A stretch of 64,000 nt of DNA from NCBI GenBank assembly GCA_017447265.1, contig JAFSOA010000008.1:15167-79166 (forward strand), written 5' to 3'. Positions within the stretch are counted from its first letter, which is position 1. Every line of letters starts with the position of its first letter. The stretch is from Bacteroidales bacterium. GTDB lineage: Bacteria; Bacteroidota; Bacteroidia; Bacteroidales; UBA932. Positions 6,004 through 42,341 of the stretch are shown here, one piece after another. The translations under genes were made by a program, and so were the position numbers. The notes below the pieces were generated by a model. It was given only the letters and a program-made list of their open reading frames with translations, was not told the DNA's origin and searched no databases.

Positions 6004-6579
6004 ATGAAACGTATTCTTACCATCATCGTGCTGGCAGCAGCCTGCACCTCGGGCTTTGCACAGAAAGCCCCTCAGAGCGCTTCTTACAGCGAACTCAAGA
6101 ACTACTACAATGCTTCTGACTATGTAAAGAGCGACGTGGATCCCTATTCTGTCTTCTGGATTGGCCTGGAGTCATTCGGAGCTCCGGGTACAGGCCAGCT
6201 CATTATGAAAGAAACCGGCCGCGGCTGGGCATTCCTCGGTACCAGCGTCGCCCTCGGCGCAGTCCAAAGCGTTCTGACCCAGAATGTTGTTGACTTGATT
6301 GAAAAAGGCGCTGACGGCAAATGGAGCATCCCCGAAGCCAACAAAGACAAAGCCCGCGGCTACCTTGCAGCCGTCGGTGGACTTATGCTTGCCCAACTTG
6401 GCCTCGACATCTGGTCTTGCATCGATGCTGTAAAGATCGCCAAAGTCAAGAACCAGTACTACCAGGATACCAAGGGAAAACACGCCTTCTCCGCAGCCGT
6501 TTACCCCTCCATCGACTTGGCTCAAACCGGCACCTCAGTCGTCCCCACAGCCGGTATGACTTTCGCCGTCAGATTCTAA
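6004..6579 (+). CDS. hypothetical exported/membrane protein
   Basis: Signal peptide MKRILTIIVLAAACTSGFAQ plus internal hydrophobic segments. Last gene of the 3174-6579 same-strand run. Confidence 0.65.
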   Translation: MKRILTIIVLAAACTSGFAQKAPQSASYSELKNYYNASDYVKSDVDPYSVFWIGLESFGAPGTGQLIMKETGRGWAFLGTSVALGAVQSVLTQNVVDLIEKGADGKWSIPEANKDKARGYLAAVGGLMLAQLGLDIWSCIDAVKIAKVKNQYYQDTKGKHAFSAAVYPSIDLAQTGTSVVPTAGMTFAVRF

Positions 6580-6612
6580 ACTGTCGAATCAGTAATAATG
6601 CCATCGGAAGGT

Positions 6613-6714
6613 AGCAATTTGACGCGGGACACCCAAATTGAACTCTGAATCAGCCTCTCACGATGCTGTAAGGGCGGTTTTGGTCAGCAGACTGGAAAAG
6701 TGCGGAAAACAGGA
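6613..6714 (+). repeat. 102-bp direct repeat, copy 1
   Basis: AGCAATTTGACGCGGGACACCCAAATTGAACTCTGAATCAGCC... is identical to 10041..10119 over the first 79 nt. The next ~23 nt carry 3 mismatches. Confidence 0.95.
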
Positions 6715-6720
6715 GAGGTA

Positions 6721-6753
6721 TTTGCAATTTTTTCCGGAAAAAGAGTAAATTTG
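6721..6753 (+). promoter_or_regulatory. Bacteroidetes-type promoter with a palindromic spacer
   Basis: TTTG at 6721..6724 and TAAATTTG (TAnnTTTG -7 consensus) at 6746..6753. A perfect 14-bp palindrome TTTTTCCGGAAAAA (6729..6742) sits between them. Confidence 0.5.
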
Positions 6754-6841
6754 CGGCTCGCGAAATGAGGCAACAGCCCTGTACGGAATTGCCCGTATGT
6801 ATTCGCGTCTGCGTAAATATATAAAGCTCAGCCATATAGCC

Positions 6842-6970
6842 ATGGATCAAACTAAAAAAGCTCCGTATCTCTCACCTGAAGTAAGGGTTTTCGAGGTGAA
6901 AACAGAAGGGGTCATCTGTAATAGCGGCCGCGTTCAAGACTACAACTGGAACCAGTACGAAGAAGAGTAA
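6842..6970 (+). CDS. candidate 42-aa small ORF upstream of the large lipoprotein gene
   Basis: ATG..TAA read by hand: MDQTKKAPYLSPEVRVFEVKTEGVICNSGRVQDYNWNQYEEE. Below the ORF-track size cutoff. Lies between the predicted promoter and the 6996 start codon. Confidence 0.35.
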   Translation: MDQTKKAPYLSPEVRVFEVKTEGVICNSGRVQDYNWNQYEEE

Positions 6971-6995
6971 CGCCCAATTTAAAACGAAGGAAGCA

Positions 6996-9881
6996 ATGAA
7001 TAACATAGTGCGATTTTTCGGCATGGCCGCCCTCGTTGCAACGGGCGCTATCCTTTCGGGCTGCTCCAAGAGTGAAATGGAGGAACCGGAAATCAGGAAC
7101 AATTCGGATATTACGGATAACATCGTAACTGTCACCACGACCATCAATCTGGATGAGAATGATGCCACCAGGGCGCTGGCCATTGACTACGATGCAAAGA
7201 CGCTCACGAAGACCTTTGCCGTGGGCGATAAGATTGCTGTCATCTATCAGAACAATAGCGGCAATTTGGATAAGGCTGAGAGCGTGGCCCTTACCGATAG
7301 CGACCTCTTTGGTGGGGGCAAGTCGGCAAAGATTACAGTTTCCCTGACCGACCCGAAGGCCTACGGCAGTGTGAAACTCATCTACCCCGCGTCCATGGCC
7401 GGCACGGACGATGTGGACTATTCCATGCTCAAGAATCAGACAGGCACACTGGCAGGCATCGCCGCATCGTTCGACCTCGCCACCTTTGAAGGCAGTCTGG
7501 ATGGAGGGTATAGACTTCCAGCCTCAGTAAAGCTGGAGAACGAGTTTGCCATCATCGCTTATACACTGAAGAATGAGTCCGGCGCAAACGATATCACCGG
7601 CACTATCACGGGAATGACCATCAACGACGGCACCAACGGATACACCATCTCGGGCCGGGATTCCGACGGCCGCATATACGCAGCCATCCGTCCCACAAGC
7701 CATGCCGGCATCAATTACTTCGCCACCAACGGCACGAAGAACTACAACAAGTCCGTGACTGACAAGACCTACGAGGCCGGACAGTTCTATCAGCTGGGAC
7801 TGAGAATGGCGGAGGCCCCTGTCACCGACCTCTCCACTATCAGTGCCAATTACACGGTTTCAAACGGTGAAACGATCACCGGAACACTGGCTGGCAGCTA
7901 CAAGATTTCCATCGCCGCCGGCGCCACGGTAACGCTGAAGGACATGACCATTGGCGGCACTGACAATTCAGACTACCAGTGGGCCGGCATCACCTGCCTG
8001 GGCGATGCCACCATTTTCCTCAGCGGTACGAACATCGTGAGAGTATACCGAGCTGGAGAGCCGGGCATCCTGGCCGGTCCAAAGGGTACGTCGCTGACCA
8101 TCAGCGGTACAGGTTCACTTGATGTTAGCAGCGATTTCGGAGGTGCAGGCATCGGCAGCGGCACTGACGAATGCGGTGACATCATCATCAGCGGCGGCAC
8201 CATCACCGCAAAGGGTGGCTTCGGCGCACCCGGCATAGGCAGCGGCAGATCAAATTCCTGCGGCAACATTACCATCTGCGGCGGCACCATCACGGCCAAG
8301 GGCGGTGGATATGGAGTAGGTATTGGCGGCGGCTGGGACGGCTCCTGCGGTGACATCACCATCACTGACGGCGTAACCAGCGTCACCGCCATCAAGGGCG
8401 AAGACTCTGTCAACTGCATCGGCGCAGGCATTGACGGCACCTGCGGCACGGTAACCATAGGCGGCGTAGTGAGGGGCAACATCAGCGAGAGCCCTTATTT
8501 TTACCCCGAACCCACCAGACTCTCAACACTCTCATCTGACTACACGGCGGCTGACGGTGAAACGCTCTACGGCACGCTGGCCGGCAACTACAAGATTTCC
8601 ATCGCCGCCGGCGCCACGGTAACGCTGAAGGATGTGACCATCGACGGCAGCGGCAATTATGCCGGCATCAATTGCATGGGCGATGCCACCATCATCCTCG
8701 ACGGCACGAACAACGTAAAGGGATACTCTTCGGACTATCCCGGTATCTATGTGCCACGATATAAAACGCTCACCATCCTGGGTACGGGCTCGCTTACAGC
8801 TGTCGGCAACGACCGTGGCGCGGGCATCGGTGGCAGTTCTGGTGCAGACTGCGGAAACATCGTGATTGAGGGTGGCACCATCGCTGCGACGGGCGGCACC
8901 CATGCTGCCGGTATCGGCAGCGGCGGTTACGGCTCCTGCGGCGACATCACCATCAGCGGCGGAACTGTTACGGCCACAGGCGGAGATGAAGCTGCCGGTA
9001 TTGGCAGCAGTTGGGGTTCCTGCGGCAAAATCACCATCACTGACGGCGTGACCAGCGTCACCGCCACCAAGGGCTTTGACGCCTACAACAGCATCGGCGC
9101 GGGCTATCAAGGCTCCTGCGGCACGGTGACCATAGGCGGCAACGTGGGTGCAATCAGCAAGAGTCCTTACACTTTCCCCGTAATCACCGACCTTTCGACC
9201 GTCGATGGCAACTACACCGCTTTGAACCTGGAAACGCTCACCGGCACGCTGGCCGGCAACTACAAGATTTCCATCGCCGCCGGCGCTACGGTAACGCTGA
9301 AGGACATGACCATTGTCGGCACGGACAATTCAGACTACCAGTGGGCCGGCATCACCTGCGAGGGCAATGCCACCATCATCCTCGAAGGCACGAACAGCGT
9401 GGAGGGATCCTCTTATTATTATCCCGGTATCCATGTGCCGAAGGGCAGCACGCTGACCATACGGGGCACCGGTTCGCTCACTTCCAGCGGCAAAGGCGGC
9501 GGCTCGGGAATAGGCGGCATAGGTGTAAGCGACGGCAATAGATCCTATTGCGGAAACATCACGATTGAAGGCGGCATCATCACTGCCAGGGCCGGCGAAT
9601 ATGCTGCCGGCATCGGCGGCGGCAAAAACTGCAACTGCGGCAATATCACAATCACAGGCGGCACCGTCACGGCCTACGGCGGTACCAAATCAGCCGGCAT
9701 CGGCAGCAGTATGGGAAGTGACTGCGGCAATATCAGAATAACCGACGGCGTGACCAAAGTCACAGTTTACTCCGGTGCCAACTACGCCATAGGGCCAGGC
9801 ATTAACGGCTCCTGTGGCTCCGTGCGCATCGGCAGCAACTCAGGCGGTGTCGCCGGCGCCCCTTACGTCTATCAGCCATAA
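6996..9881 (+). CDS. large surface lipoprotein: fimbrillin-like N-terminal region + three ~225-aa beta-helix-type repeats
   Basis: Lipobox LSGC. Three repeats each open with TGTLAG(N/S)YKISIAAGATVTLKD(M/V)TI, followed by stacked ~24-aa coils G-x-AGIGSG-xxx-CG-x-ITI-x-GGT(I/V)TA. Confidence 0.85.
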   Translation: MNNIVRFFGMAALVATGAILSGCSKSEMEEPEIRNNSDITDNIVTVTTTINLDENDATRALAIDYDAKTLTKTFAVGDKIAVIYQNNSGNLDKAESVALTDSDLFGGGKSAKITVSLTDPKAYGSVKLIYPASMAGTDDVDYSMLKNQTGTLAGIAASFDLATFEGSLDGGYRLPASVKLENEFAIIAYTLKNESGANDITGTITGMTINDGTNGYTISGRDSDGRIYAAIRPTSHAGINYFATNGTKNYNKSVTDKTYEAGQFYQLGLRMAEAPVTDLSTISANYTVSNGETITGTLAGSYKISIAAGATVTLKDMTIGGTDNSDYQWAGITCLGDATIFLSGTNIVRVYRAGEPGILAGPKGTSLTISGTGSLDVSSDFGGAGIGSGTDECGDIIISGGTITAKGGFGAPGIGSGRSNSCGNITICGGTITAKGGGYGVGIGGGWDGSCGDITITDGVTSVTAIKGEDSVNCIGAGIDGTCGTVTIGGVVRGNISESPYFYPEPTRLSTLSSDYTAADGETLYGTLAGNYKISIAAGATVTLKDVTIDGSGNYAGINCMGDATIILDGTNNVKGYSSDYPGIYVPRYKTLTILGTGSLTAVGNDRGAGIGGSSGADCGNIVIEGGTIAATGGTHAAGIGSGGYGSCGDITISGGTVTATGGDEAAGIGSSWGSCGKITITDGVTSVTATKGFDAYNSIGAGYQGSCGTVTIGGNVGAISKSPYTFPVITDLSTVDGNYTALNLETLTGTLAGNYKISIAAGATVTLKDMTIVGTDNSDYQWAGITCEGNATIILEGTNSVEGSSYYYPGIHVPKGSTLTIRGTGSLTSSGKGGGSGIGGIGVSDGNRSYCGNITIEGGIITARAGEYAAGIGGGKNCNCGNITITGGTVTAYGGTKSAGIGSSMGSDCGNIRITDGVTKVTVYSGANYAIGPGINGSCGSVRIGSNSGGVAGAPYVYQP
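7821..9878 (+). repeat. three intragenic tandem repeats (~670-700 bp each)
   Basis: CAAGATTTCCATCGCCGCCGGCGC(C/T)ACGGTAACGCTGAAGGA recurs at 7901, 8591 and 9263. Repeat units are about 7821..8511, 8512..9179 and 9180..9878. Confidence 0.9.
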
Positions 9882-9984
9882 ACTGAGTTCTTATGACCTC
9901 CTGCGGAATTGTTGTCTGAGTTATTGCCTCACGGCTATTTTTCCCTGACCTGTTTCCCGCTCACATGCTCTATCCGGAAATCCA

Positions 9985-10016
9985 GAACGGCGGCTCTGGG
10001 GCCGTTCTTGTTATGC
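9985..10016 (+). terminator. possible terminator of the lipoprotein gene
   Basis: AGAACGGC (9985..9992) pairs with GCCGTTCT (10002..10009), followed by TGTTATGCTT. The T-tract is weak. Confidence 0.3.
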
Positions 10017-10040
10017 TTCCGCCGGACAAACATACTGCGA

Positions 10041-10142
10041 AGCAATTTGACGCGGGACACCCAAATTGAACTCTGAATCAGCCTCTCACGATGCTGTAAG
10101 GGCGGTTTTGGTCAGCAGATTGAAAATGTGCGGAAAACAGGA
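10041..10142 (+). repeat. 102-bp direct repeat, copy 2
   Basis: See 6613..6714. The flanks on both sides of the two copies are unrelated. Confidence 0.95.
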
Positions 10143-11037
10143 AGAGACTCTCCCAGGCCTACGCACGCCAACGCACAGGGCTCTCGCACAATATATACCC
10201 GCCCGCCCTGCGATGGCATCCTCCGGCAGCTGCGCTGCCTCCGGATAGCCCGCTGCCCAGCCAGCCCACTAGCGGATTGCTCCGCTGCTGCGCAGCTCCG
10301 CAACCGCCGGTGTCTCAACCCCTGTCGGCTGCCGCCGACATCCCATTTCAGGGGAAATCGCGGTCATTGAGACCGCGGCGCCGCTCATGGTGCAGGTGTT
10401 GGCTGTTGAGGTAACGCTAGTGCCAGTAGTGATGGAGGTCAATGCCGATGCTGCCAGCGCCAGCGCGGTCCACGTTCCTATAGTATCAGTGCTTATAGTG
10501 CTATTGGGGAAATCGAGACCCCGGGCCGATGTCTTCCATATATACCAGGGAAGGAGACCATTCTTCCTGATGCCGATGATGATATCCGCCTTCGGCGAAA
10601 TTAAGCCCTGTCGGGCTTTTCCTCCTTGCGGCTCGGCATAGCAAACGAGTTTGCTATGCTCTCGCTCGCTGCGTCGGTTTTGGCCGGTGCCGTTCGGGCC
10701 GATGGTGCCAGGCCTCCGTTGTCGGGCACTCACTGCGGCCTGCAGCGTCGGTGCGGTGCGAGGGTAGATCAGCGGTCAGCCGTATTCGGCAGTCCAGCAC
10801 GGCTGGCCAGCCCAATACGTCTGGGTTATATGAGTGCCCGCCAGTCCGCCGTGGCGGCCAGGCCGGCACGATTAAGGGAAAAGCGGTATGGGAGACTGTG
10901 TCAGTTGCTCTCCCCAAAGGGGCCCCTCAGCAACCGCCACAGACTCCCATCCTGTCATCCCCCCGGCCCCCAAGGGAGATAACGCCCGGGAGGCGTCGGA
11001 GCAGTTCGGAGGTCCGTCCTCCGGGGGCCGCTGTCAT

Positions 11038-11172
11038 AACATAACGAGCGCTAAATTGTATAACTTCCTGCATCAGCGGTAGTGCCCCGTCCGGAAATCA
11101 GTTAAAGTGCGAGTATAGGTAACAACGTACAAACGCCTTACACGCAGGAAGTTATACAATTTTCGTTATGTT
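11038..11172. repeat. 29-bp perfect inverted repeat (5-nt bulge) enclosing a 72-nt AT-richer segment
   Basis: AACATAACGA[gcgct]AAATTGTATAACTTCCTGC (11038..11071) is the exact reverse complement of GCAGGAAGTTATACAATTTTCGTTATGTT (11144..11172). Confidence 0.9.
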
Positions 11173-11933
11173 AAAAAAGCTACAACGTTCCAAGTGCGAA
11201 GGCTTTCCCCCTGAACTCCCGGTCGAGGCGGCGGCAGGAGAGGGACTGGCGGCAGTGGCCGGTCCGTCACCGGCCCTTTGCCAGCCCCGCGCCGGGCAGA
11301 GGAATCGGGGCCCCGTACCCCCCAATTCCTCTACCTCGGCGCAGCCCCGCATCAGCGACATCAATATTCCACTGACATCTCCCGCATCAGCATTGGTGCA
11401 GTTCGAGCATCCTGCCGCCTTATGCCCTTCGGGCGGGTCGCTCCGTCTGTGACTCCTTGTGGCCGGGCAAGCCGTCCACAAAGAGTCAAGAGCCTCCGCT
11501 CCAAGGTAGAGTATCACCTGGTCGCTGTTCCGGAAGGCCTTTCCGTCCTTCCGCAGTCGCTACGGTCACACGGGTGCTACGCATCCCGTGTCACCTCCGC
11601 TTTGCTCCAGAACGGAAAAGCCTCCCGGGCGCCCAGGAAGCGGTCCTCCGGCCTGCTGGCGCAGCGTGTGTCAGGACAAGCCAGCCACACCCTGCGCGGT
11701 GGAAACCGTCCCTGCATTGGCTTCGCCGCCAGCGATATCCTTCGATTCAGCCTTGCTATGGGCCGTCCCGGCCCAGGCCCCGGAGGCCGTTTGCCCACCG
11801 CACAGTCCACTGTCTTTGTCGGCGGTCTGGAGCCTAAGGTCTCCAGCCCGTTGGCCCGCCAAAGCCAGTGGCCACCCCACACTTCCAGACCGCCTCCGGG
11901 GCCAACGCTCCAGTCTCTGCGCTCCTTCCGCGT

Positions 11934-12042
11934 CCTTGGTCATTTAGAGACTCAAAGGCCGGCGCCCGCCTCAACGCCGGCAACAATTCCCACGACATCA
12001 CCCGCGCCATCGTCCAGCCTTTGAGACTCTAAACAACCAAGG
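11934..12042. repeat. 24-bp extended inverted repeat (1 mismatch, 2x2 internal loop)
   Basis: CCTTGGT-ca-TTTAGAGACTCAAAGGC (11934..11959) pairs with GCCTTTGAGACTCTAAA-ca-ACCAAGG (12017..12042). Confidence 0.85.
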
Positions 12043-12191
12043 CCACCCTGCTGACGTACGCCCCAACCGCAGTGCTAAAACCACCGCCGTACCCCGCCCG
12101 AGCCGCAGAACATAGAATATATATACCACAAGGAAGCAGCGGCTGGCGCCGCTGCGGTGGCCTTGCGCTTGGATAAGATGCGGATTTTCAG

Positions 12192-12199
12192 TAATTTTG
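12192..12199 (+). promoter_or_regulatory. -7 promoter motif for paralog 1
   Basis: TAATTTTG matches TAnnTTTG, 60 nt upstream of the ATG at 12259. Confidence 0.4.
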
Positions 12200-12258
12200 T
12201 TGAGGCTTTGATGCCTGACTGTTGTTGCCGACCTGACCAAAACACCAAACCTGAACTT

Positions 12259-12981
12259 ATGCCCCTTTTCCGGCCTTCCATACTCTTTTCCGACGCCTAC
12301 GGCTCCACCAAGGACTTCACCTGGTTCCATCGGGGCGGGAAGTGCTTTGTCAAGAGACGGGTGAGGCCCACGTATGTGACAACGCCGGCACGGCAGGAAT
12401 ACCTGGATGTCCACCGGCGGGCGCTGGCCGCCTGGCGTGAACAGGAGCATCAGGTCCAGCTGCAGTGGAACGAACTCGGTCGCTCCGCCATAAGCCACCG
12501 GCCACCCTACGACAACACAACCTGGATATCCGGGCAGAATCTCTTCGTATCGGCCTATCACGGTTTCTACACCCTGGGGAACGAGCATACGCCAGCGCCT
12601 CTGCCATTCGGGCCGTTCCCGGTGTTCGCGATGGAGTTTTCGTCGGCTTCCATCACCGGGAGCGGCGCTTTGTCGTTGAGGTTCCGGGGATATTGCGGCG
12701 GCACCGATTGTCCGGAGCGTTACAGGATCCTGATGAAACTGTATATTACCAGGCCCGGAAGGGGTAAGAGCATGGAGAAGCTGCGTAACGTCCTCGCGTC
12801 TTCCGTCTGCTCCGGGGAGTCCTGCTTCATCGACTTCATCATCCCGGATTATCTGGAGAGGTGGCATCTGGATGCGCTGCCAAGCTACGGCGCCCATTGC
12901 CAGTACATAGTCCTGGACACGCAGACCGGCTACCGGGACCAGTACAGGAGCTACGATTTCCAGTTCGACCTTCCTCAATGA
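12259..12981 (+). CDS. uncharacterised paralog family member 1 (most divergent)
   Basis: Start chosen by alignment to the paralogs: MPLFRPSILFSDAYGSTKDFT versus M..(I/L)PSIAF...SGSAKGVT. Shared W..L....Q..W..L and SG.NL(F/Y) motifs. The listed start 12157 adds 34 unaligned residues. The long antisense ORF 11998..12978 was rejected. Confidence 0.7.
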   Translation: MPLFRPSILFSDAYGSTKDFTWFHRGGKCFVKRRVRPTYVTTPARQEYLDVHRRALAAWREQEHQVQLQWNELGRSAISHRPPYDNTTWISGQNLFVSAYHGFYTLGNEHTPAPLPFGPFPVFAMEFSSASITGSGALSLRFRGYCGGTDCPERYRILMKLYITRPGRGKSMEKLRNVLASSVCSGESCFIDFIIPDYLERWHLDALPSYGAHCQYIVLDTQTGYRDQYRSYDFQFDLPQ

Positions 12982-13087
12982 GGGAGGTTTTTTTGTCTTC
13001 CGGTATAGTTGAGTTAATTAAAGTATAACTTTAGGTAAATACGACTAAAGCGCTGTAATTTAGTTTGCAAATTAGAATTATTTGCAC

Positions 13088-13095
13088 TATCTTTG
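13088..13095 (+). promoter_or_regulatory. -7 promoter motif for paralog 2
   Basis: TATCTTTG lies within the AT-rich 165-bp gap, 56 nt upstream of the ATG at 13151. Confidence 0.4.
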
Positions 13096-13150
13096 TTGAC
13101 AGATAGTTAACCACTGTCACTTGAACCTGTACTTAACCTAAACTTTTCTT

Positions 13151-14203
13151 ATGATCGCTTTACCGTCCATTGCCTTCGGCGGATTCAGCGGCTCCGCGAA
13201 GGGCGTAACGGCCCGCTACCGGGACGGCCGCAGCATCCTGTCCCTGAAGTGCTACCCGACCGGGGAGGCAACCGTCGCACAGATAGCCCGCCGCGTATCC
13301 ATGGCGAGGATCACGAAGTCCTGGAAGAAGCTGACCGACATCCAGCGGCAGGACTGGGACCGCCTGGCAGGTCACGCCAGCGGCCAGAGCGTTTTCGGGC
13401 AGAAGGCGGAACTCTCCGGCATGAACCTCTACGTCCGGCTTAACGTCAACCGCGTCATGGCCGGCGAATCCCTCCTTTCCACGCCTCCTGCAGGCCAGGT
13501 GGCTGTCCCCAATGTCGAGTATGAAAATGTGTCCGTGACTCCGCAGCTGATTGTCTTCGGTGGCATCCGGCACCAGTCCAGCCCCAATAAGTTGGTGGTG
13601 AAGATGTCCGGGAGCCAGTCTGCCGGCATCTCCAATGGCTGGAGCAAGACGGTCATTATTTCTTCCGAGGTGGAGGATGACTGGGGTGAAGCGGATGTGA
13701 CCTCCCTCTATCTCAAGACTATCGGTGTGGAGCCTACGCCCGGCCAGAAGGTCTTCATCGAGTGCTACTGGCTGGACACTTCCACCGGTTTCACGGGGCA
13801 GATCTTCAAGGACAGCGTGATTGTCACTGGAGAGTCCTCCTACACGCCCCGCAAGCGTGTGACTATGGACCGGCTTAACCCGAACTATGAGCAGCACGTA
13901 AGTGCCATTGACGTGGACTTTTCCTCCGGCGCTCCTGTCGTTCAGTATGACGTGATGTGCGAAGGCCATAGCAACGTAGCCTCCTCTGAGGTGAATCTGG
14001 TAGATGAACTGCCGGCTGAACTTCAGGGAACGTCCTGGGCTATTGGCCGTGGCAACGGTGAGGACGGTAAACTTTGCGCCCAGTCCTATGTAATGTGGCT
14101 CTACGGCGCCCGGTATGGCGACCCTGCCAAGATCACCTTCGCGCATCGAGGCGGCTATTATGTCAAACCTACCGAGGTCTTCGGGCCTGGCGTAATCTAC
14201 TAA
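13151..14203 (+). CDS. uncharacterised paralog family member 2 (long C-terminal extension)
   Basis: MIALPSIAFGGFSGSAKGVTARYRDGR...WKKLTDIQRQDWDRLA...LSGMNLYVRLN aligns with 15747..16472 over about the first 110 aa. The antisense ORF 13160..14263 was rejected. Confidence 0.8.
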   Translation: MIALPSIAFGGFSGSAKGVTARYRDGRSILSLKCYPTGEATVAQIARRVSMARITKSWKKLTDIQRQDWDRLAGHASGQSVFGQKAELSGMNLYVRLNVNRVMAGESLLSTPPAGQVAVPNVEYENVSVTPQLIVFGGIRHQSSPNKLVVKMSGSQSAGISNGWSKTVIISSEVEDDWGEADVTSLYLKTIGVEPTPGQKVFIECYWLDTSTGFTGQIFKDSVIVTGESSYTPRKRVTMDRLNPNYEQHVSAIDVDFSSGAPVVQYDVMCEGHSNVASSEVNLVDELPAELQGTSWAIGRGNGEDGKLCAQSYVMWLYGARYGDPAKITFAHRGGYYVKPTEVFGPGVIY

Positions 14204-14210
14204 TAAGGCT

Positions 14211-14954
14211 ATGAACTTCAATTCTTTAGGCAATAATTTTGGGGCTGGCTCCATCAGTTTCAAGTCCCATCAGGAGGAGAATTTCGTAGTCCTGAACGCG
14301 AATTTCACCTACAATCCGGAAAACGCAGACTATCAGGCTGCAGATGTCCTGGAAATCTATGTGCCGGACCTCTCTATAGGTCGTAGTGCCATTGCCGGTG
14401 TGTTCCTCCGGTTCAGCGATGTCAGGGATAGTTACGGTTACACTTGGGATAACAGCGGCGGTACCGTCTTGAAATCCTGGGTAAAGGACAAAAACACGAT
14501 CTGCATCGAGAAGTTCACCAACTTCGACGAGAAAGGAGAGATTACCATCTACATCCTGACTCTCTACACGATGCTGGCCCGGGGCGGAAACCCCATCAAG
14601 GGAACACAGACAAGGCTCCAGACTTCCACTGAAGGCAATTATCTTCGCTGGGGGTATGACTCGTTCTTCGTGGAGTTTGAGCATTGGATCTTCTTGCACA
14701 TGATGTATTCCAGCTGTACTTATGCGTACCGGGATTCCGCTTGGGAATGCAGTCTGGATAACCTGCCGTCCGGCATTACTGCAGACCTTCCGTTCTGTGG
14801 TGGCGGCAACCAGTACAATCCGTCTGTGGATGGTATGTCGGAAGCCCACATTGAGAATGGTGTATTAACCTGTGCAACCCGCACCGCCGGCTTTGATGAC
14901 ACCGGCCACGAGCCTTTCATCTTCGCCTTCCTGGTGCGTGACAGTGAAGAATAA
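14211..14954 (+). CDS. hypothetical protein
   Basis: 247-aa ORF with balanced composition, 7 nt after the upstream stop. No recognisable motif. Confidence 0.65.
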   Translation: MNFNSLGNNFGAGSISFKSHQEENFVVLNANFTYNPENADYQAADVLEIYVPDLSIGRSAIAGVFLRFSDVRDSYGYTWDNSGGTVLKSWVKDKNTICIEKFTNFDEKGEITIYILTLYTMLARGGNPIKGTQTRLQTSTEGNYLRWGYDSFFVEFEHWIFLHMMYSSCTYAYRDSAWECSLDNLPSGITADLPFCGGGNQYNPSVDGMSEAHIENGVLTCATRTAGFDDTGHEPFIFAFLVRDSEE

Positions 14955-14965
14955 CTGACTGCCTT

Positions 14966-15262
14966 ATGTCCGCCAAGAAGAAATACGAGCTCACCCGCCT
15001 GCAGGGCGCAATGTCCATCGCCAGCTTCAGTGCCGGCACGGTCATCTGCATGGTGTGCCTTTTCTTTGTCCCTCCCATCGGTGAAATCTCCAGCACGGCG
15101 ATGATGGCCGTCTCGGAATTCCTGGTTCTCTGCGGCGGGCTGCTTGGCTCCAAGGCCAGCTTCGATATGCGGATGCAGCGCTTTGAAGCCAAGGTGATGA
15201 ACGAGATCCGTAATGCCGATGCTCCCGGCCAGCCCGAAAACGACCACAAAACTGAATTATGA
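14966..15262 (+). CDS. small two-TM membrane protein, holin-like
   Basis: 98 aa with two hydrophobic helices (AMSIASFSAGTVICMVCLFFV and TAMMAVSEFLVLCGGLLG) and a charged C-terminal tail. Stop overlaps the next start (ATGA). Confidence 0.6.
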   Translation: MSAKKKYELTRLQGAMSIASFSAGTVICMVCLFFVPPIGEISSTAMMAVSEFLVLCGGLLGSKASFDMRMQRFEAKVMNEIRNADAPGQPENDHKTEL

Positions 15263-15750
15263 AAAACGCCTCCGCCCATATACCATTGCTCTTGCTCTTC
15301 CTTCTTCCCTGGGTTGCTTCCTGTGGTGTTGTCCAGCCTGTGACAGGTGCAGACAACACCCGGGTGGAGGTCCGTACCGTTACCGAGACCGTCCACGACA
15401 CGGCCTGGGTAGAGCTGCCGGTCATCGTGGAGAAGGTGGCCACTCTCGATACGGCATCAGTCCTGGAGAATAAATACGCCAAATCGGCCGCTTCCGTCTC
15501 CGGAGGTGTTCTGCATCACTCCCTGCAGACAAAGCCCGTCAGGGAGCCCGTGAGCGTCGAGACAAAGATTGTTTACCGCGACTCCCTGGTGTACCGGGAC
15601 AGGATCCGGACAGAGACCGTTGAGGTGGAAAGAAAACTTTCATCCTGGCAGGCCTTCAAGATGAAGACCGGAGGCCTCACACTTACGATATTACTTATTG
15701 CAGTAATTTATATAACCTTATCCATCATCCTAAAACTTAAACCTTTATGA
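15259..15750 (+). CDS. lipoprotein with a C-terminal TM anchor, unimolecular-spanin-like
   Basis: Lipobox LPWVASC at the N-terminus and TM helix LTLTILLIAVIYITLSIILKL at the extreme C-terminus. The middle is beta-strand-rich (VEVRTVTETV, VSVETKIVYRD). ATGA overlaps on both sides. Confidence 0.6.
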   Translation: MKNASAHIPLLLLFLLPWVASCGVVQPVTGADNTRVEVRTVTETVHDTAWVELPVIVEKVATLDTASVLENKYAKSAASVSGGVLHHSLQTKPVREPVSVETKIVYRDSLVYRDRIRTETVEVERKLSSWQAFKMKTGGLTLTILLIAVIYITLSIILKLKPL

Positions 15751-16472
15751 AGTACATTCCAAGCATCGCCTTCGAGGAGATGAGCGGCAGCGCCAAGGGC
15801 GTTACGGCCGCTAAGATGAAAGGTCGCAAGTACATCAAGAACCGCGGCTACGGCAGCGGCATCCGCACCAGCGACCAGGCCAAAATCAAGGGAGTATTCA
15901 AGTCCTTGGTGACCCGCTGGAAGGCCCTTTCCAACGACCAGCTGCTCGCGTGGAACAAACTCGCGCTCAGCCAGGAAGGCCGCAGCGTCCTCGGCACCAA
16001 AGCCAAGATCTCCGGCTTCAACCTCTTCACCCGCCTCAACCACTGGGTCGTGACCCTCGGCGGGGAACTTATGACCACGCCGCCCACCCTAGTCGGCGTA
16101 GAGACTCCTTCCGGAGCCACCATCGTCTGCCAGGGTGACACCTTCACCTTCAAGCTGGACCAGGACCTCTCCGACAACGGAGGCATCTTCCTCATCATCG
16201 AGGCCACCGAAGGCCAGTCCAACGGCGTTTCCCGCGCCCACAGCAAAGCCGTCGAGATCAAGACCGTCGAAGAGCCCGACGACACCGCCATCAACATCCG
16301 TGCGGACTACGTGGCCAAGCATGGCGCCCCCAGCGCAGCTGCCCCGAAGATCTTCTTCCGCTACTACTTCGTCAACAGCGCCACCGGCGAAAAGTCCGTT
16401 TCCATGCTTGCCGAGTGCAAGTGGGAGCCCGCCGCTGCCGTACCCGAAGAGCCCGCTGGCGGCGGAGACTAA
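15747..16472 (+). CDS. uncharacterised paralog family member 3
   Basis: MKYIPSIAFEEMSGSAKGVTAAKMKGRKYIKNRGY...WKALSNDQLLAWNKLA...ISGFNLFTRLN. Basic N-terminal arm and acidic/Pro-rich tail. Translationally coupled to 15259..15750. Confidence 0.8.
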   Translation: MKYIPSIAFEEMSGSAKGVTAAKMKGRKYIKNRGYGSGIRTSDQAKIKGVFKSLVTRWKALSNDQLLAWNKLALSQEGRSVLGTKAKISGFNLFTRLNHWVVTLGGELMTTPPTLVGVETPSGATIVCQGDTFTFKLDQDLSDNGGIFLIIEATEGQSNGVSRAHSKAVEIKTVEEPDDTAINIRADYVAKHGAPSAAAPKIFFRYYFVNSATGEKSVSMLAECKWEPAAAVPEEPAGGGD

Positions 16473-16575: not shown

Positions 16576-16583
16576 TACCTTTG
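16576..16583 (+). promoter_or_regulatory. -7 promoter motif upstream of the truncated paralog copy
   Basis: TACCTTTG matches TAnnTTTG. Confidence 0.4.
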
Positions 16584-16742: not shown

Positions 16743-17273
16743 AAGATTCTTGCCTGGAACAAGCTGGCCCTCTCTCAGGAAGGCCGCAGCGTCCTCGGCT
16801 CCAAGGCCAAGATCTCCGGAGCCAACCTGTTCACCCGCCTTAACTACTGGATTGTCGCTTGCGGCGGCCAGCCTGAGGTGACCCCGCCTGAACTGGTGGG
16901 TGTGGAGAACCCTTCCGGCGCCACCATCGTGTGCCAGGGTGACACCTTCACCTTCAAGCTGGACCAGGCCCTGGCTGACAACGGCGGCATCTTCCTCGTG
17001 ATTGAGGCCACCGAAGGCCAGTCCAATGGTGTGAGCCGTGCTCATGCCAAGGCTTCCGCCGTGAAGCTCGTGGAAGAGCCCACCGATGCCGCCATCGACA
17101 TCCGTGCGGACTACGTGGCCAAGTACGGCGCCCCCAGCGCTGCGGCCCCGAAGATCTTCTTCCGCTACTACTTCGTCAATTCCAGCACCGGCGAGAAGTC
17201 CGGTACCATGCTGGCGGAGTGCAAGTGGGCCGCTGCTGCCGCCCAGAACGCAGACCCCGGCGACGGTGATTAA
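16743..17273 (+). pseudogene. 5'-truncated copy of paralog 3 (C-terminal ~175 codons only)
   Basis: 16749..17273 aligns colinearly with 15945..16472 at roughly 80 percent identity by eye, with substitutions of all types. The frame is open from the TAA at 16740..16742 but has no ATG. The first alternative start is GTG at 16878. Confidence 0.7.
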
Positions 17274-17365: not shown

Positions 17366-17566
17366 TCAGTCGTTCTCGTCCAATTGGAAGATGGACTCAA
17401 CCGGTTTCCCAAAATGACGGGCAATCTTCAAGGCCAATACAGTAGAAGGAAGGTAACGTCCGGATTCAATGGAAATAATGGTGTTACGGCTTACGCCTAC
17501 TGCGTCGGCCAACTGTTGCTGGGTTATGTCCAGAATGGCCCTTTCTACACGAACTGTGTTTTTCAT
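17366..17566 (-). CDS. XRE-family helix-turn-helix transcriptional regulator
   Basis: 66 aa. ITQQQLADAVGVSRNTIISIESGRYLPSTVLALKIARHF is a canonical Cro/C1-type HTH. Confidence 0.9.
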   Translation of the reverse strand: MKNTVRVERAILDITQQQLADAVGVSRNTIISIESGRYLPSTVLALKIARHFGKPVESIFQLDEND

Positions 17567-18018
17567 AAGGCCTGGTCCTTTTTGGATTGACGGAGAAGCA
17601 CGCGGAAGATCAGATAGTATAAGCCAGCACCCGCTATGGGCAGGACAATAAGAAAAAGTTCACTCAAAAATGGGCTTATGGTTCCGACATTACTCGTGAA
17701 TAAATCGAGCAAATGCAACTCTAGTGTAAGGCTCAAGAGTAGGAAAACTACGAAAAGAACATAACCGGTTAGCCCCAGGGCCTTGAGTCGCAGGCCGGAG
17801 ATCATTTCGTCTTCTACCTTCTCCTTGGAGAGGGTAATGAAGAACAGCGAGGCAATGAGAACGAAGTGAGAAGATTTTGCCAGATACCAAGCCACATCAA
17901 TATTATGTGTGGTATATGAGAGGATAATCTTGGCAACTACAATGAGAGCCGTTAGGAGAAGAAGTCACCAGCCAATCTTCTGGCAGGAGTGTGGCATAAG
18001 GATACTTTTGCTATTCAT
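17563..18018 (-). pseudogene. membrane protein gene interrupted by an in-frame TGA at codon 18
   Basis: Manual translation from ATG 18018 gives MNSKSILMPHSCQKIGW*LLLLTALIVVAKIIL... in frame with the listed ORF 17563..17895, which starts at GTG. The promoter motif sits upstream of the 18018 start. Confidence 0.6.
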
Positions 18019-18218: not shown

Positions 18219-18821
18219 TCAGTCCTGGTTGAGGCTGTCCACGTAGGCCTTGATTCCTTCAACGTGCAGCTGGACAATGGCGGCCTTTCCTTCGTCGCTG
18301 AGGAGGAACTCCAGGGACTCCTGGCAATCCATAAATCCTGATTCCGTCAGGCATGCCGCGCAGGCAGTTTTGTGGAGGATGGCGAAGTTTGCTTCCTGGT
18401 CCGGATCTCCGTCGGAATAATCGAAGCGCATCCGATGACCGGGCAGGATCTGGAGGGCGGCAGCACAAAGACAGTTGGCCAGTTTGTCTCCCTCCGTATG
18501 GCCTTTGCTCGTGTAGCAGCACCAGCCGGTGGCGTTATACCATTTGTCGCCGCGTCCGGCAGCGTTCACGTGGATGGAAACCAGACAGACGTTCCGGCGG
18601 CCAAACTCGGAGCAAACGCGGTTGACTCTTTTGCAGCGCTCTGCCAGAGAAATGTCTTCATCTTCAGGAACCAGCAGGGAAGCGTAGAAGTGTTCGGATT
18701 GGAGGGCGGCCACAACACGCCGGGCGATTTCCCGGTTGTAAGACCATTCAAGGAGACGGCCGTCAGGAGAGCGCTTTCCTGCAGTTTCACGGCCGTGTCC
18801 GTTGTCAATCAAGATTTTCAT
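18219..18821 (-). CDS. N-acetylmuramoyl-L-alanine amidase (Amidase_3-like)
   Basis: MKILIDNGHGRETAGKRSP...SIHVNAAG...NFAILHKT...ESGFM matches the zinc-amidase motif pattern. Confidence 0.85.
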   Translation of the reverse strand: MKILIDNGHGRETAGKRSPDGRLLEWSYNREIARRVVAALQSEHFYASLLVPEDEDISLAERCKRVNRVCSEFGRRNVCLVSIHVNAAGRGDKWYNATGWCCYTSKGHTEGDKLANCLCAAALQILPGHRMRFDYSDGDPDQEANFAILHKTACAACLTESGFMDCQESLEFLLSDEGKAAIVQLHVEGIKAYVDSLNQD

Positions 18822-19005: not shown

Positions 19006-19228
19006 AGTACATTTTCAGTACATTATCACGAAAAATCAGATATAAAAAACGCCCCTCACGTATGTGAGAGACGTTTTTAGGCGGTGCGGAAGGGACCGCG
19101 AATTACGAAAATCGATATATCAATGATTTTTAGTACATTTTCAGTACATTTTGGCGAAAACTAAAACAAAAAGATGCCCCACAATTGCTTGTAAGGCATC
19201 TTTAAGCGGTGCGGACGAGACTCGAACT
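19006..19228. repeat. tandem ~126-bp duplication: AGTACATTTTCAGTACATT + terminator hairpin + tRNA 3'-end
   Basis: AGTACATTTTCAGTACATT occurs at 19006..19024 and 19132..19150. GCGGTGCGGAagggaccgcgaa (19081..19102) mimics the tRNA-Asp 3' end GCGGTGCGGAcgagactcgaac (19206..19227). Each unit carries its own hairpin. Confidence 0.8.
19160..19203 (-). terminator. rho-independent terminator of tRNA-Asp
   Basis: On the minus strand, AAAGATGCC...GGCATCTTT forms a 9-bp stem followed by TTTTTGTTTT. Confidence 0.6.
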
Positions 19229-19280
19229 CGCGACCTCCGGCGTGACAGGCCGGCATTCTAACCAGCTGAACTACCGCACC
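19207..19280 (-). tRNA. tRNA-Asp (anticodon GTC)
   Basis: Reverse complement is GGTGCGGTAGTTCAGCTGGTTAGAATGCCGGCCTGTCACGCCGGAGGTCGCGAGTTCGAGTCTCGTCCGCACCG. It folds as a cloverleaf with a 7-bp acceptor stem and anticodon loop CTGTCAC. CCA is not encoded. Confidence 0.93.
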
Positions 19281-42179: not shown

Positions 42180-42214
42180 AGAAATGGAATCCTTCGGGAA
42201 AGGGCACGAAAAAA

Positions 42215-42311
42215 GGGTAAGCTTGATATATCGCACCGCTACAACCACCTACCCTTGCTGCCTTCCGACCCTGGGGGAGTTCAGTGGGAGCTGGTCGTAT
42301 ACGACTTACCC
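42215..42311 (-). ncRNA. ffs: signal recognition particle RNA (4.5S-type)
   Basis: The minus strand reads GGGUAAG...CCCCCAGGGUCGGAAGGCAGCAAGGGUAGG...CUUACCC. It has a conserved domain IV-like GGAA tetraloop context and closing terminal helix. A TACCTTTG promoter motif sits at 42317..42324 (-) and a T-run follows the 3' end. Confidence 0.8.
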
Positions 42312-42341
42312 CGGCACAAAGGTAAGCATTTTTTTGAATAA

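Follow-up and report, generated by a model that had tools for sequence, protein, structure and literature searches.

A mobile gene module of Bacteroidales encodes paralogous proteins with a common N-terminal module: possible structural proteins of a small tail-less phage-like element

Introduction

The double-jelly-roll capsid proteins of the Bamfordvirae contain two upright eight-stranded jelly rolls per chain, and the members with double-stranded DNA carry a packaging ATPase of the FtsK/HerA type. Here we analyzed genes that may belong to a small element of such a tail-less kind. They are located in a stretch of 64,000 nucleotides (nt; below called the window) from a Bacteroidales bacterium (GTDB lineage Bacteroidota; Bacteroidia; Bacteroidales; UBA932; NCBI GenBank assembly GCA_017447265.1, contig JAFSOA010000008.1, positions 15,167 to 79,166 of the forward strand). 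The genes are three paralogs, named g1, g2 and g3, whose products begin with a shared N-terminal module (N-module). They lie together with p247, a gene between g2 and g3, with lysis-type genes and with an RNA element directly upstream of g1.

A second group of related systems comprises GOLLD and ROOL, which are large ornate RNAs often located in prophages. No protein partner is known for GOLLD, ROOL or other RNAs of this type.

Among double-jelly-roll capsid proteins, the smallest known are those of the Flavobacterium phage PhiCjT23, with 239 amino acids (aa), and of PM2, with 269 aa, and the double-jelly-roll capsid proteins often fail tests of sequence or profile similarity among themselves (PMC9719478). 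The spike of PhiCjT23 starts with a non-canonical, capsid-integral N-terminal domain of 91 aa, which is followed by a hinge and then by external domains (PMC9719478). In PRD1, the spike protein and the penton protein share a penton-forming N-terminal domain and co-assemble (PMC9719478).

The N-terminal module shared by g1, g2 and g3

The original prediction on this DNA, made from the sequence without database searches, named three open reading frames (ORFs), all of which are present (Table 1). The common N-terminal module and the motif series that it described were also borne out, since a module of about 113 aa aligns in g1, g2 and g3. BLASTP related the proteins pairwise with E values of 4e-8 (g1/g2), 3e-11 (g1/g3) and 9e-29 (g2/g3). 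Family profiles were calculated from about 50-80 orthologs per paralog, and profile-profile comparison of the N-modules alone gave E values of 3e-12, 2e-14 and 1e-49 for the three pairs.

The N-module had been described as basic. This is correct for g2 and g3, which displayed median net charges of +8 and +13 over the 113 aa and isoelectric points (pI) above 10, while the N-module of g1 is weakly basic, with +2 only. The distal parts are acidic, with net charges of -11 in g2 and -3 in g3. The N-module of the g1 family has conserved residues of its own (C13, H24, C29 and H52) that are missing in g2 and g3, and a zinc site formed by them is a conjecture. No signal peptide was seen in g1, g2 or g3 by inspection of the sequences.

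The proteins had also been thought to diverge completely after the N-module, with unrelated C-termini, and this claim had to be abandoned. The homology of g2 and g3 runs on to about residue 230 with 31% identity (BLASTP), and their C-domain profiles compared by themselves matched with an E value of 4e-34. The only unique stretch is the third domain of g2, residues 235-350. A weak in-register match to g3 was found for the last 40 residues of the g1 C-domain (E value 5e-4, probability 30%, profile comparison), and the motif behind this match is DY...Y-x-L/V-D/N-x-x-T-G.

In each orthologous family, the N-module was conserved at least as well as the distal domains. The values were 0.77 for the N-module and 0.61 for the distal part in g3, 0.59 and 0.44 in g1, and 0.68, 0.68 and 0.59 across the N-module and the two distal domains of g2.

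Table 1. Features of the gene module and its surroundings (positions in the window; the topologies of the holin-like and u-spanin-like proteins were read from the sequence)
Feature	Position	Strand	Remarks
Structured RNA gene (candidate)	10870..12160	+	ORF-free, about 1.3-1.35 kb; ends in GC-rich hairpin 12136-12155
Promoter motif TAATTTTG	12192..12199	+	Bacteroidetes -7 type; 60 nt upstream of the g1 start codon
g1	12259..12981	+	240 aa; most divergent paralog; weakly basic N-module
Promoter motif TATCTTTG	13088..13095	+	ahead of the g2 operon
g2	13151..14203	+	350 aa; basic N-module, predicted immunoglobulin (Ig)/fibronectin type III (Fn3)-like sandwich 126-225 and second beta-sandwich 235-350
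p247	14211..14954	+	acidic, predicted all-beta two-barrel protein between g2 and g3; candidate shell subunit
Holin-like protein	14966..15262	+	98 aa; two transmembrane segments and charged tail
u-spanin-like protein	15259..15750	+	163 aa; N-terminal lipobox (VASC) and extreme C-terminal transmembrane helix
g3	15747..16472	+	241 aa; most basic N-module (+13); one predicted Ig-like sandwich
Second g3 copy, 5'-truncated	16743..17273	+	codons 64-241; without the first 63 codons, i.e. the first half of the N-module
N-acetylmuramoyl-L-alanine amidase, endolysin type	18219..18821	-	no signal peptide
tRNA-Asp	19206-19280
Small signal recognition particle RNA, Bacteroidales	42211-42318

Predicted structure of g2

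The AlphaFold2 model of g2 was based on a 52-sequence alignment and reached a predicted local distance difference test score (pLDDT) of 81.9. A short N-terminal beta-sheet (a beta-hairpin, residues 14-32) was predicted with low confidence and is followed by three helices at 42-59, 63-75 and 90-103. A linker closing in conserved prolines then leads to the two beta-sandwiches listed in Table 1.

Foldseek searches of this model against PDB and BFVD gave weak matches throughout (TM score 0.2-0.46). The neighbours were tandem Fn3/Ig domains, Fn3-bearing phage tail or receptor-binding proteins and the fibre heads of siadenoviruses and adenoviruses. In the viral library they were annotated as tail, receptor-binding and fibre proteins, all of them weak matches of generic Fn3/Ig or fibre-head sandwiches. 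No enzyme was found among the structural matches of g2, which is in agreement with the structural role first proposed for the paralogs. Neither the full paralog profile nor the N-module profile matched a PDB sequence.

Distribution of the protein family

A profile built from the N-modules of g1-g3 was searched against 1.84 billion representative proteins. It matched 3,931 proteins (clusters at 50% identity) at E <= 1e-3 and 320 at E <= 1e-10. Among the best 150 of the 3,931 clusters, the match was located at residues 1-114 in almost all cases. The lengths of the N-module proteins cluster near 230 and 350 aa and extend up to 600 aa. In 81 diverse members no Pfam domain was detected inside the N-module, while the long members recurrently carried C-terminal Flg_new_2 / Flg_new matches (Listeria-Bacteroides repeats), and some g3 homologs carried C-terminal Fn3_assoc and CHB_HEX_C_1. 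The N-terminal position, the varied lengths and the C-terminal repeats support the original idea of a constant module with more variable distal domains.

For g2 and g3, more than 1,100 close clusters each were retrieved, every one of them unnamed. The closest 120 protein clusters of g2 displayed 80-93% identity and a length of exactly 350 aa in all cases, and more distant g2 homologs comprised 348-354 aa. Among the GTDB species representatives, at least 413 stretches code for relatives. Nearly all of these belong to uncultured Bacteroidales of the rumen and gut, namely Cryptobacteroides, Paludibacteraceae, Muribaculaceae and Rikenellaceae, and matches in metagenomes came additionally from anaerobic digesters, activated sludge and the human gut.

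A likeness to DUF6266, a Bacteroidota-restricted uncharacterised Pfam family, had been suggested in the original prediction. No Pfam match was obtained for g1-g3 at E <= 0.1 (hmmscan, Pfam-A) or for the N-module of the 81 diverse members at E <= 0.01, and a literature search for DUF6266 found no paper. Since g1, g2 and g3 were without a match in Pfam, PHROGs, NCBIfam and PADLOC, the assignment to DUF6266 is unsupported. The protein family, the gene module and the pairing of g1 with the RNA element are undescribed in the libraries and literature searched.

Gene order and mobility of the module

A total of 167 loci were examined, taken from the source contigs of the protein clusters, IMG/VR, GTDB genomes and metagenomes, and about 150 of them hold a module centred on g2. 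The gene order is fixed: RNA element and g1 (optional), g2, p247, a second p247 paralog (optional), the holin-like and u-spanin-like genes (optional), g3 and the amidase gene (optional). Downstream of g2, in the 84 loci with at least 3.6 kb of sequence on that side, p247 was the next gene in 84/84 and g3 was present in 83/84. The holin-like gene was found in 58 and the spanin-like gene in 59 of these 84 modules (about 70%). Upstream of g2, 77 loci with at least 3 kb could be compared. The neighbour was g1 in 48, a divergent block of DUF3853, AAA_25 helicase, Zn-ribbon-DUF6371 primase and HTH_17 genes in 11, a PriCT_2-DUF3987 primase followed by an amidase in seven, and none of these in 11. The original prediction had asked whether homologs always occur with an amidase, holin-like genes and a long non-coding tract. 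The amidase is often adjacent, but the holin-like genes are restricted to the 58 of 84 modules and the RNA to modules with g1.

Within the window, g1 is probably monocistronic, as suggested by the promoter motifs before g1 and g2 and by a terminator-like hairpin with T-run after g1 (12967-12989), and the genes from g2 to g3 probably form one tightly packed operon. The promoter pattern TAnnTTTG has 41 matches in the window, while 15 are expected by chance.

The behaviour of the module is that of mobile DNA. Joined to the AAA_25-type block, it makes up a common segment of about 7 kb, which is placed in differing chromosomal flanks, and no flanking att-like direct repeats were found at the ends of this primase-linked block. 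Clustering of the flanking ORFs recovered as recurrent families only the genes of the module, the amidase and the primase/helicase genes, and the flanks were otherwise unrelated between loci. In one IMG/VR locus an integrase gene is located directly upstream of the module. Several metagenome-assembled genomes (MAGs) contain two or three copies, and many copies are held at contig ends in the GTDB genomes. The flanks in the window are ordinary chromosomal genes encoding an AraC-type regulator, a beta-helix lipoprotein and cytochrome bd.

Some individual loci illustrate these arrangements. In L003, L004, L009 and L028 (about 6500-13680), the 7-kb block consists of HTH_17, Zn-ribbon-DUF6371 primase, AAA_25 helicase, DUF3853, g2, p247, holin-like, spanin-like and g3 genes with 84-92% nucleotide identity and no integrase inside. 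The right flanks differ, and the left flanks contain differing restriction-modification or reverse-transcriptase cargo. Two complete or partial modules in inverted orientation were found within 17 kb in L016 (9150-17209), L037 and L032. A g1/RNA-type module and a primase-type module are located on a single 486-kb contig (L125, L126), separated by 250 kb.

Lysis-type genes and p247

The u-spanin-like gene overlaps both of its neighbours at the start and stop codons. The holin-like and spanin-like proteins had no family match. They were assigned by topology alone and could alternatively be membrane proteins of a particle. The amidase matched Pfam Amidase_3 (E value 8e-21) and PHROG 435 'endolysin' (E value 9.5e-35), and its homologs adjoin the module in many loci, either as g3 on the plus strand followed by the amidase on the minus strand or as the amidase followed by g2, both on the plus strand. 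A two-transmembrane protein, a lipobox protein and a signal-less Amidase_3 protein resemble a phage lysis cassette composed of a class II holin, a unimolecular spanin of the T1 gp11 type and an Amidase_3 endolysin. The set differs from such a cassette in that the holin-like and spanin-like proteins lack a family match and the amidase gene of the window is 2.5 kb away on the opposite strand.

The AlphaFold model of p247 (pLDDT 92.2, predicted template modelling score 0.90) consists of two all-beta halves. The protein has a net charge of -13 and no conserved His/Glu cluster. Homologs measure 235-263 aa, and a variant of about 370 aa also occurs. No family match and no PDB sequence match by profile was obtained for p247, and an internal duplication was not significant (E value 0.11).

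The longer variant is confined to one sublineage (L021, L029, L034, L037, L048, L061, L063, L076, L078, L082 and L083), in which p247 reaches about 370 aa by a C-terminal extension. The next gene in this sublineage encodes a further p247 paralog, which is about 240 aa long and strongly diverged (22-27% identity).

Possible structural proteins of a tail-less phage-like particle

The absence of signal peptides, the basic N-module with acidic distal domains, p247, the lysis-type genes and the association with primase or integrase genes together point to structural proteins of a released particle rather than to enzymes or Sec-exported envelope proteins. We therefore consider that the paralogs g1, g2 and g3 may be structural components of a phage-like element, small and without a tail, or of its domesticated remnant, and give this reading a probability of roughly 0.4. 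The phage-like structural role suggested in the original prediction is supported by the genomic context, namely by the holin-like, u-spanin-like and amidase genes and by the primase/helicase or integrase genes that often adjoin the module.

The data show the homology, the charge polarity and domain architecture, the mobility and fixed gene order of the module and the linkage of g1 with the RNA. Particle formation, domain orientation and lysis roles are what we infer from these features, and the arrangement could be as follows. The shared N-module would serve as a constant, inward-facing anchor that fixes each paralog to the same kind of site on the particle, where it may contact nucleic acid or the acidic two-barrel protein p247. 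The Pro-rich linker would lead to the acidic Ig/Fn3-like domains, which would project outward and carry specificity. An outward specificity role is suggested because g2 has an extra knob-like domain, g3 homologs have adhesin-type repeats and the distal parts evolve faster. The invariant trio g2-p247-g3 would form the core of the particle, and release would occur by lysis via the holin-like protein, the u-spanin-like protein and the amidase. The g1 protein would be a paralog that some modules do without, and its function would be linked to the 1.35-kb structured RNA beside it. In this arrangement p247 would be the putative capsid protein, as suggested by its size, its predicted two-barrel architecture and its context; its place among the double-jelly-roll proteins is a matter of inference.

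The closest described counterparts are vertex proteins of small tail-less, membrane-containing phages of Bacteroidota and Proteobacteria, namely the spikes P13 of PhiCjT23 and P1 of PM2 and the pair P5-P31 of PRD1/PR772. In the design that is proposed here for g1-g3 too, they combine a capsid-integral N-terminal anchor of about 90-110 aa, a flexible Pro/Gly hinge and variable external domains (PMC9719478). In PRD1, two vertex proteins share an N-terminal domain and differ distally; here three paralogs share one N-module and differ distally. Small tail-less phages of 7-10 kb are temperate, occur in Bacteroidota and may lack an integrase and a packaging ATPase of their own (PMC9719478), and in length p247 falls within the range of the smallest capsid proteins with a double jelly roll (239-269 aa).

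Several results weigh against this reading. Sequence or profile similarity to the vertex proteins of tail-less phages is absent, and a comparison of the g2/g3 paralog profile with the PM2 spike gave no match. The N-module, predicted as a beta-hairpin with three helices, appears to be neither a jelly-roll penton domain, as located at five-fold capsid vertices, nor the six-stranded fold of PhiCjT23. Among the top 50 Foldseek matches of p247 in PDB there was no double-jelly-roll capsid protein. The best matches were bicupins, whose chains form two barrels (vicilins, BacB and oxalate decarboxylase among them), and these were weak (E value about 1e-3, TM score 0.1-0.24). Comparison of the p247 profile with PM2 P2 and the FLiP capsid protein (hhalign) gave a probability of 0.2%, and p247 was without a PHROG match.

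The genomic data contain further points of this kind. ORF clustering of the first 87 loci and the first 30 kb of the window revealed no recurrent packaging ATPase, portal or tail gene. The single-stranded DNA members FLiP and PhiCjT23 are also without a packaging ATPase. Unlike small tail-less phages, the module lacks both a rolling-circle Rep gene and a series of genes for small membrane proteins. Many of its copies, including that of the window, have no replication or integration gene nearby. No match to p247 or g3 was obtained by tblastn against 50,697 phage genomes, and IMG/VR gave only three matches, none on a contig with recognisable virion genes. An extrachromosomal or excised form was considered and rejected. 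No circular form was detected by terminal overlaps in any contig of the 167 loci, and the depth was even across the island without an excision joint in four DNA runs, a weak test because the runs were assembled contigs.

The structured RNA element and its linkage with g1

In a search with nhmmer using positions 9882-12258 of the window, the segment 10870-12250 was recovered in 38 of the first 87 loci with E values down to 1e-139, and the element also occurs in many further metagenome loci. Codon periodicity is absent (0.385/0.379/0.403, against 0.225/0.165/0.518 in g2). RNAalifold analysis of the 3' 460 nt in 14 sequences predicted 80 pairs, of which 25 showed compensatory changes and few were broken. 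The element is read as a structured RNA gene.

Three other explanations of the ORF-free tract were rejected. A hidden coding sequence is contradicted by the lack of codon periodicity, a decayed replication gene by blank tblastn searches of the tract with primase, helicase, DUF3853 and HTH proteins, and a known RNA family by the absence of any Rfam match even at E <= 1.

The element, whose relatives include L110:18056-18503, has a conserved terminal hairpin, GCAGCGGC-loop-GCCGCTGC. It is followed in some relatives by a terminator-like T-run, which is not present in the window. The long helix at alignment columns 201-313 has a middle part that accommodates an insertion of about 45 nt, which is variable.

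The RNA element and g1 occur together without exception. Among the 31 loci covered on both sides, both were present in 23, both were absent in eight and none was discordant; in the first locus set, the counts were 14 and eight. Mostly, the RNA immediately precedes g1 and has the same orientation. Several loci have it behind g3 in the opposite orientation, with g1 in its usual place ahead of g2, and the RNA is therefore more than a g1 leader. Both g1 and the RNA are absent from the primase-linked modules.

With GOLLD and ROOL, the element shares the character of a very large, GC-rich, covarying non-coding RNA beside phage-like structural and lysis genes. It differs in its size of about 1.3 kb, its occurrence in Bacteroidales, the absence of an Rfam family and the strict linkage to g1.

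The original prediction had raised the idea of an RNA-protein particle. According to this idea the paralogs, with or without p247, would assemble on or around the 1.35-kb RNA and bind it by their basic N-modules. The g1 protein would be the RNA-specific adaptor, and the RNA a scaffold, a cargo or a cofactor of assembly or packaging like the phi29 pRNA. The idea remains speculative and gained one support in the exceptionless co-occurrence of g1 and the upstream RNA. The concordance in 31/31 loci, the linkage kept even with the RNA downstream on the opposite strand, the covariation without a coding signal, the high pI of the g2 and g3 N-modules and the four residues specific to g1 are all in agreement with it. 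However, g2-p247-g3 occurs without the RNA in all primase-linked modules, and the RNA is therefore dispensable for the core function. Moreover, g1 has the N-module with the lowest positive charge, an RNA-binding fold was not recognised, and the co-occurrence fits equally well with regulation of g1 by the RNA or the reverse. We consider such a particle unlikely, though it survives better than the other alternatives. Its fuller version is somewhat less likely still; there, a mobile, chromosomally carried RNA-protein particle would have p247 and the paralogs as its shell, the RNA held by the basic N-modules and g1 as the adaptor.

Other possible roles of the module

The neighbours of g2 in the viral library also allow the module to be viewed as a host-range cassette of a satellite. 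The g2 and g3 proteins would then be fibre or receptor-binding proteins, p247 an adaptor or chaperone, and the N-module would attach them to the virion of an unrelated helper, whose particles would be retargeted for the benefit of a small integrated element. Besides these tail, receptor-binding and fibre neighbours, the variable adhesin-type C-terminal repeats and the position of the module at the edge of small elements with primase/helicase but no capsid genes are in accordance with this view. However, p247 and g3 were without homologs in the 50,697 phage genomes, and the Foldseek matches were weak matches to generic Ig/Fn3 folds (TM score about 0.2). Fibres are not usually attached through a strongly basic anchor domain, and the conservation of g2, with its 80-93% identity and fixed length of 350 aa, is ill-suited to a determinant of host range. 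The satellite role is improbable on this balance.

The combination of a constant N-terminus with variable C-terminal binding repeats, the lack of a signal peptide beside a linked lysis-type gene set and the chromosomal copies without replication genes would likewise be expected of non-viral proteins. In that case g1-g3 would be released or surface proteins, lectin-, adhesin- or bacteriocin-like, freed by the linked lysis genes in the manner of colicins, with the N-module as a common uptake or targeting domain. However, a toxin or enzymatic domain was not detected in any member searched, no immunity-like gene was evident, and about 30% of the modules lack the holin/spanin pair. The high conservation and fixed length of g2 are also not in accordance with such a role, and it leaves the invariant p247 unexplained. 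We regard it as more improbable again.

In an anti-phage defence or abortive-infection module on mobile islands, the lysis genes would bring about the suicide of the cell, and the paralogs would sense structural proteins of phages or act as decoys of these. Such a role is very improbable. The module often lies amid defence genes (type I restriction-modification, reverse transcriptase, AbiE), but these neighbours vary and are not recurrent, none of g1, g2, g3, p247 and the holin-like and spanin-like proteins was matched by a PADLOC model, and three abundant structural-type proteins are atypical of known defence systems.

The truncated copy of g3 and other features of the window

The second, 5'-truncated copy of g3 lies 270 bp downstream of g3 and was missed in the original prediction. 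Its frame is open over 177 codons. Compared with g3, the rates of synonymous (dS) and nonsynonymous (dN) substitution were 0.64 and 0.158, corresponding to a dN/dS of 0.25. The intact frame and a dN/dS of 0.25 at this dS argue that the copy stems from a different functional allele, either as its remnant or in stored form, and is no recent duplicate undergoing decay. A contig variant without the truncated copy (joint 16471>17283) accounted for about 15-20% of the depth in two metagenome DNA runs. A TACCTTTG motif is located at 16576, ahead of the truncated copy. A diversity-generating retroelement or cassette was rejected on three grounds: no reverse transcriptase is encoded in the window, the differences are of all base types, and the dN/dS is 0.25.

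Incomplete g3 copies that lack the N-module were also found repeatedly in further lineages (L098, L132/L136, L161). The copy of L136 is located inside an ordinary tandem segmental duplication, which also doubles a nucleotidyltransferase gene.

Between the truncated g3 copy and the amidase gene, a 66-aa XRE-type helix-turn-helix (HTH) gene overlaps the stop codon of a gene for a 110-aa membrane protein (17366-17895, minus strand). The HTH protein matched only the HTH and control-protein models of PADLOC. Just upstream of the RNA tract, positions 6996-9881 encode a lipoprotein of 961 aa, which contains three long repeats as well as Beta_helix_3 repeats. Several repeat-length variants of this gene were found in metagenome contigs, with joints skipping 680-1393 bases.

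Significance

The N-module represents a large family of about 4,000 clusters (50% identity), for which Pfam, NCBIfam, PHROGs and PADLOC offer no name. In combination with p247, it makes up one of the most conserved unannotated gene modules of Bacteroidales from the rumen, gut and digesters. Through its strict pairing with g1, the RNA element is a giant bacterial RNA for which a specific protein partner can be put to the test. A mobile RNA-protein particle, if true, would be a virus-like particle of bacteria that is encoded by DNA and contains RNA, or else a nanostructure scaffolded by RNA, and its own lysis genes would release it. If the RNA belongs to the particle, this would be categorically new. 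If the tail-less phage-like reading is true, g1-g3 would be spike-like virion proteins with a common anchoring domain, and the module would stand for an abundant lineage, viral or derived from viruses, that current phage catalogues and virus-prediction tools have missed nearly wholly.

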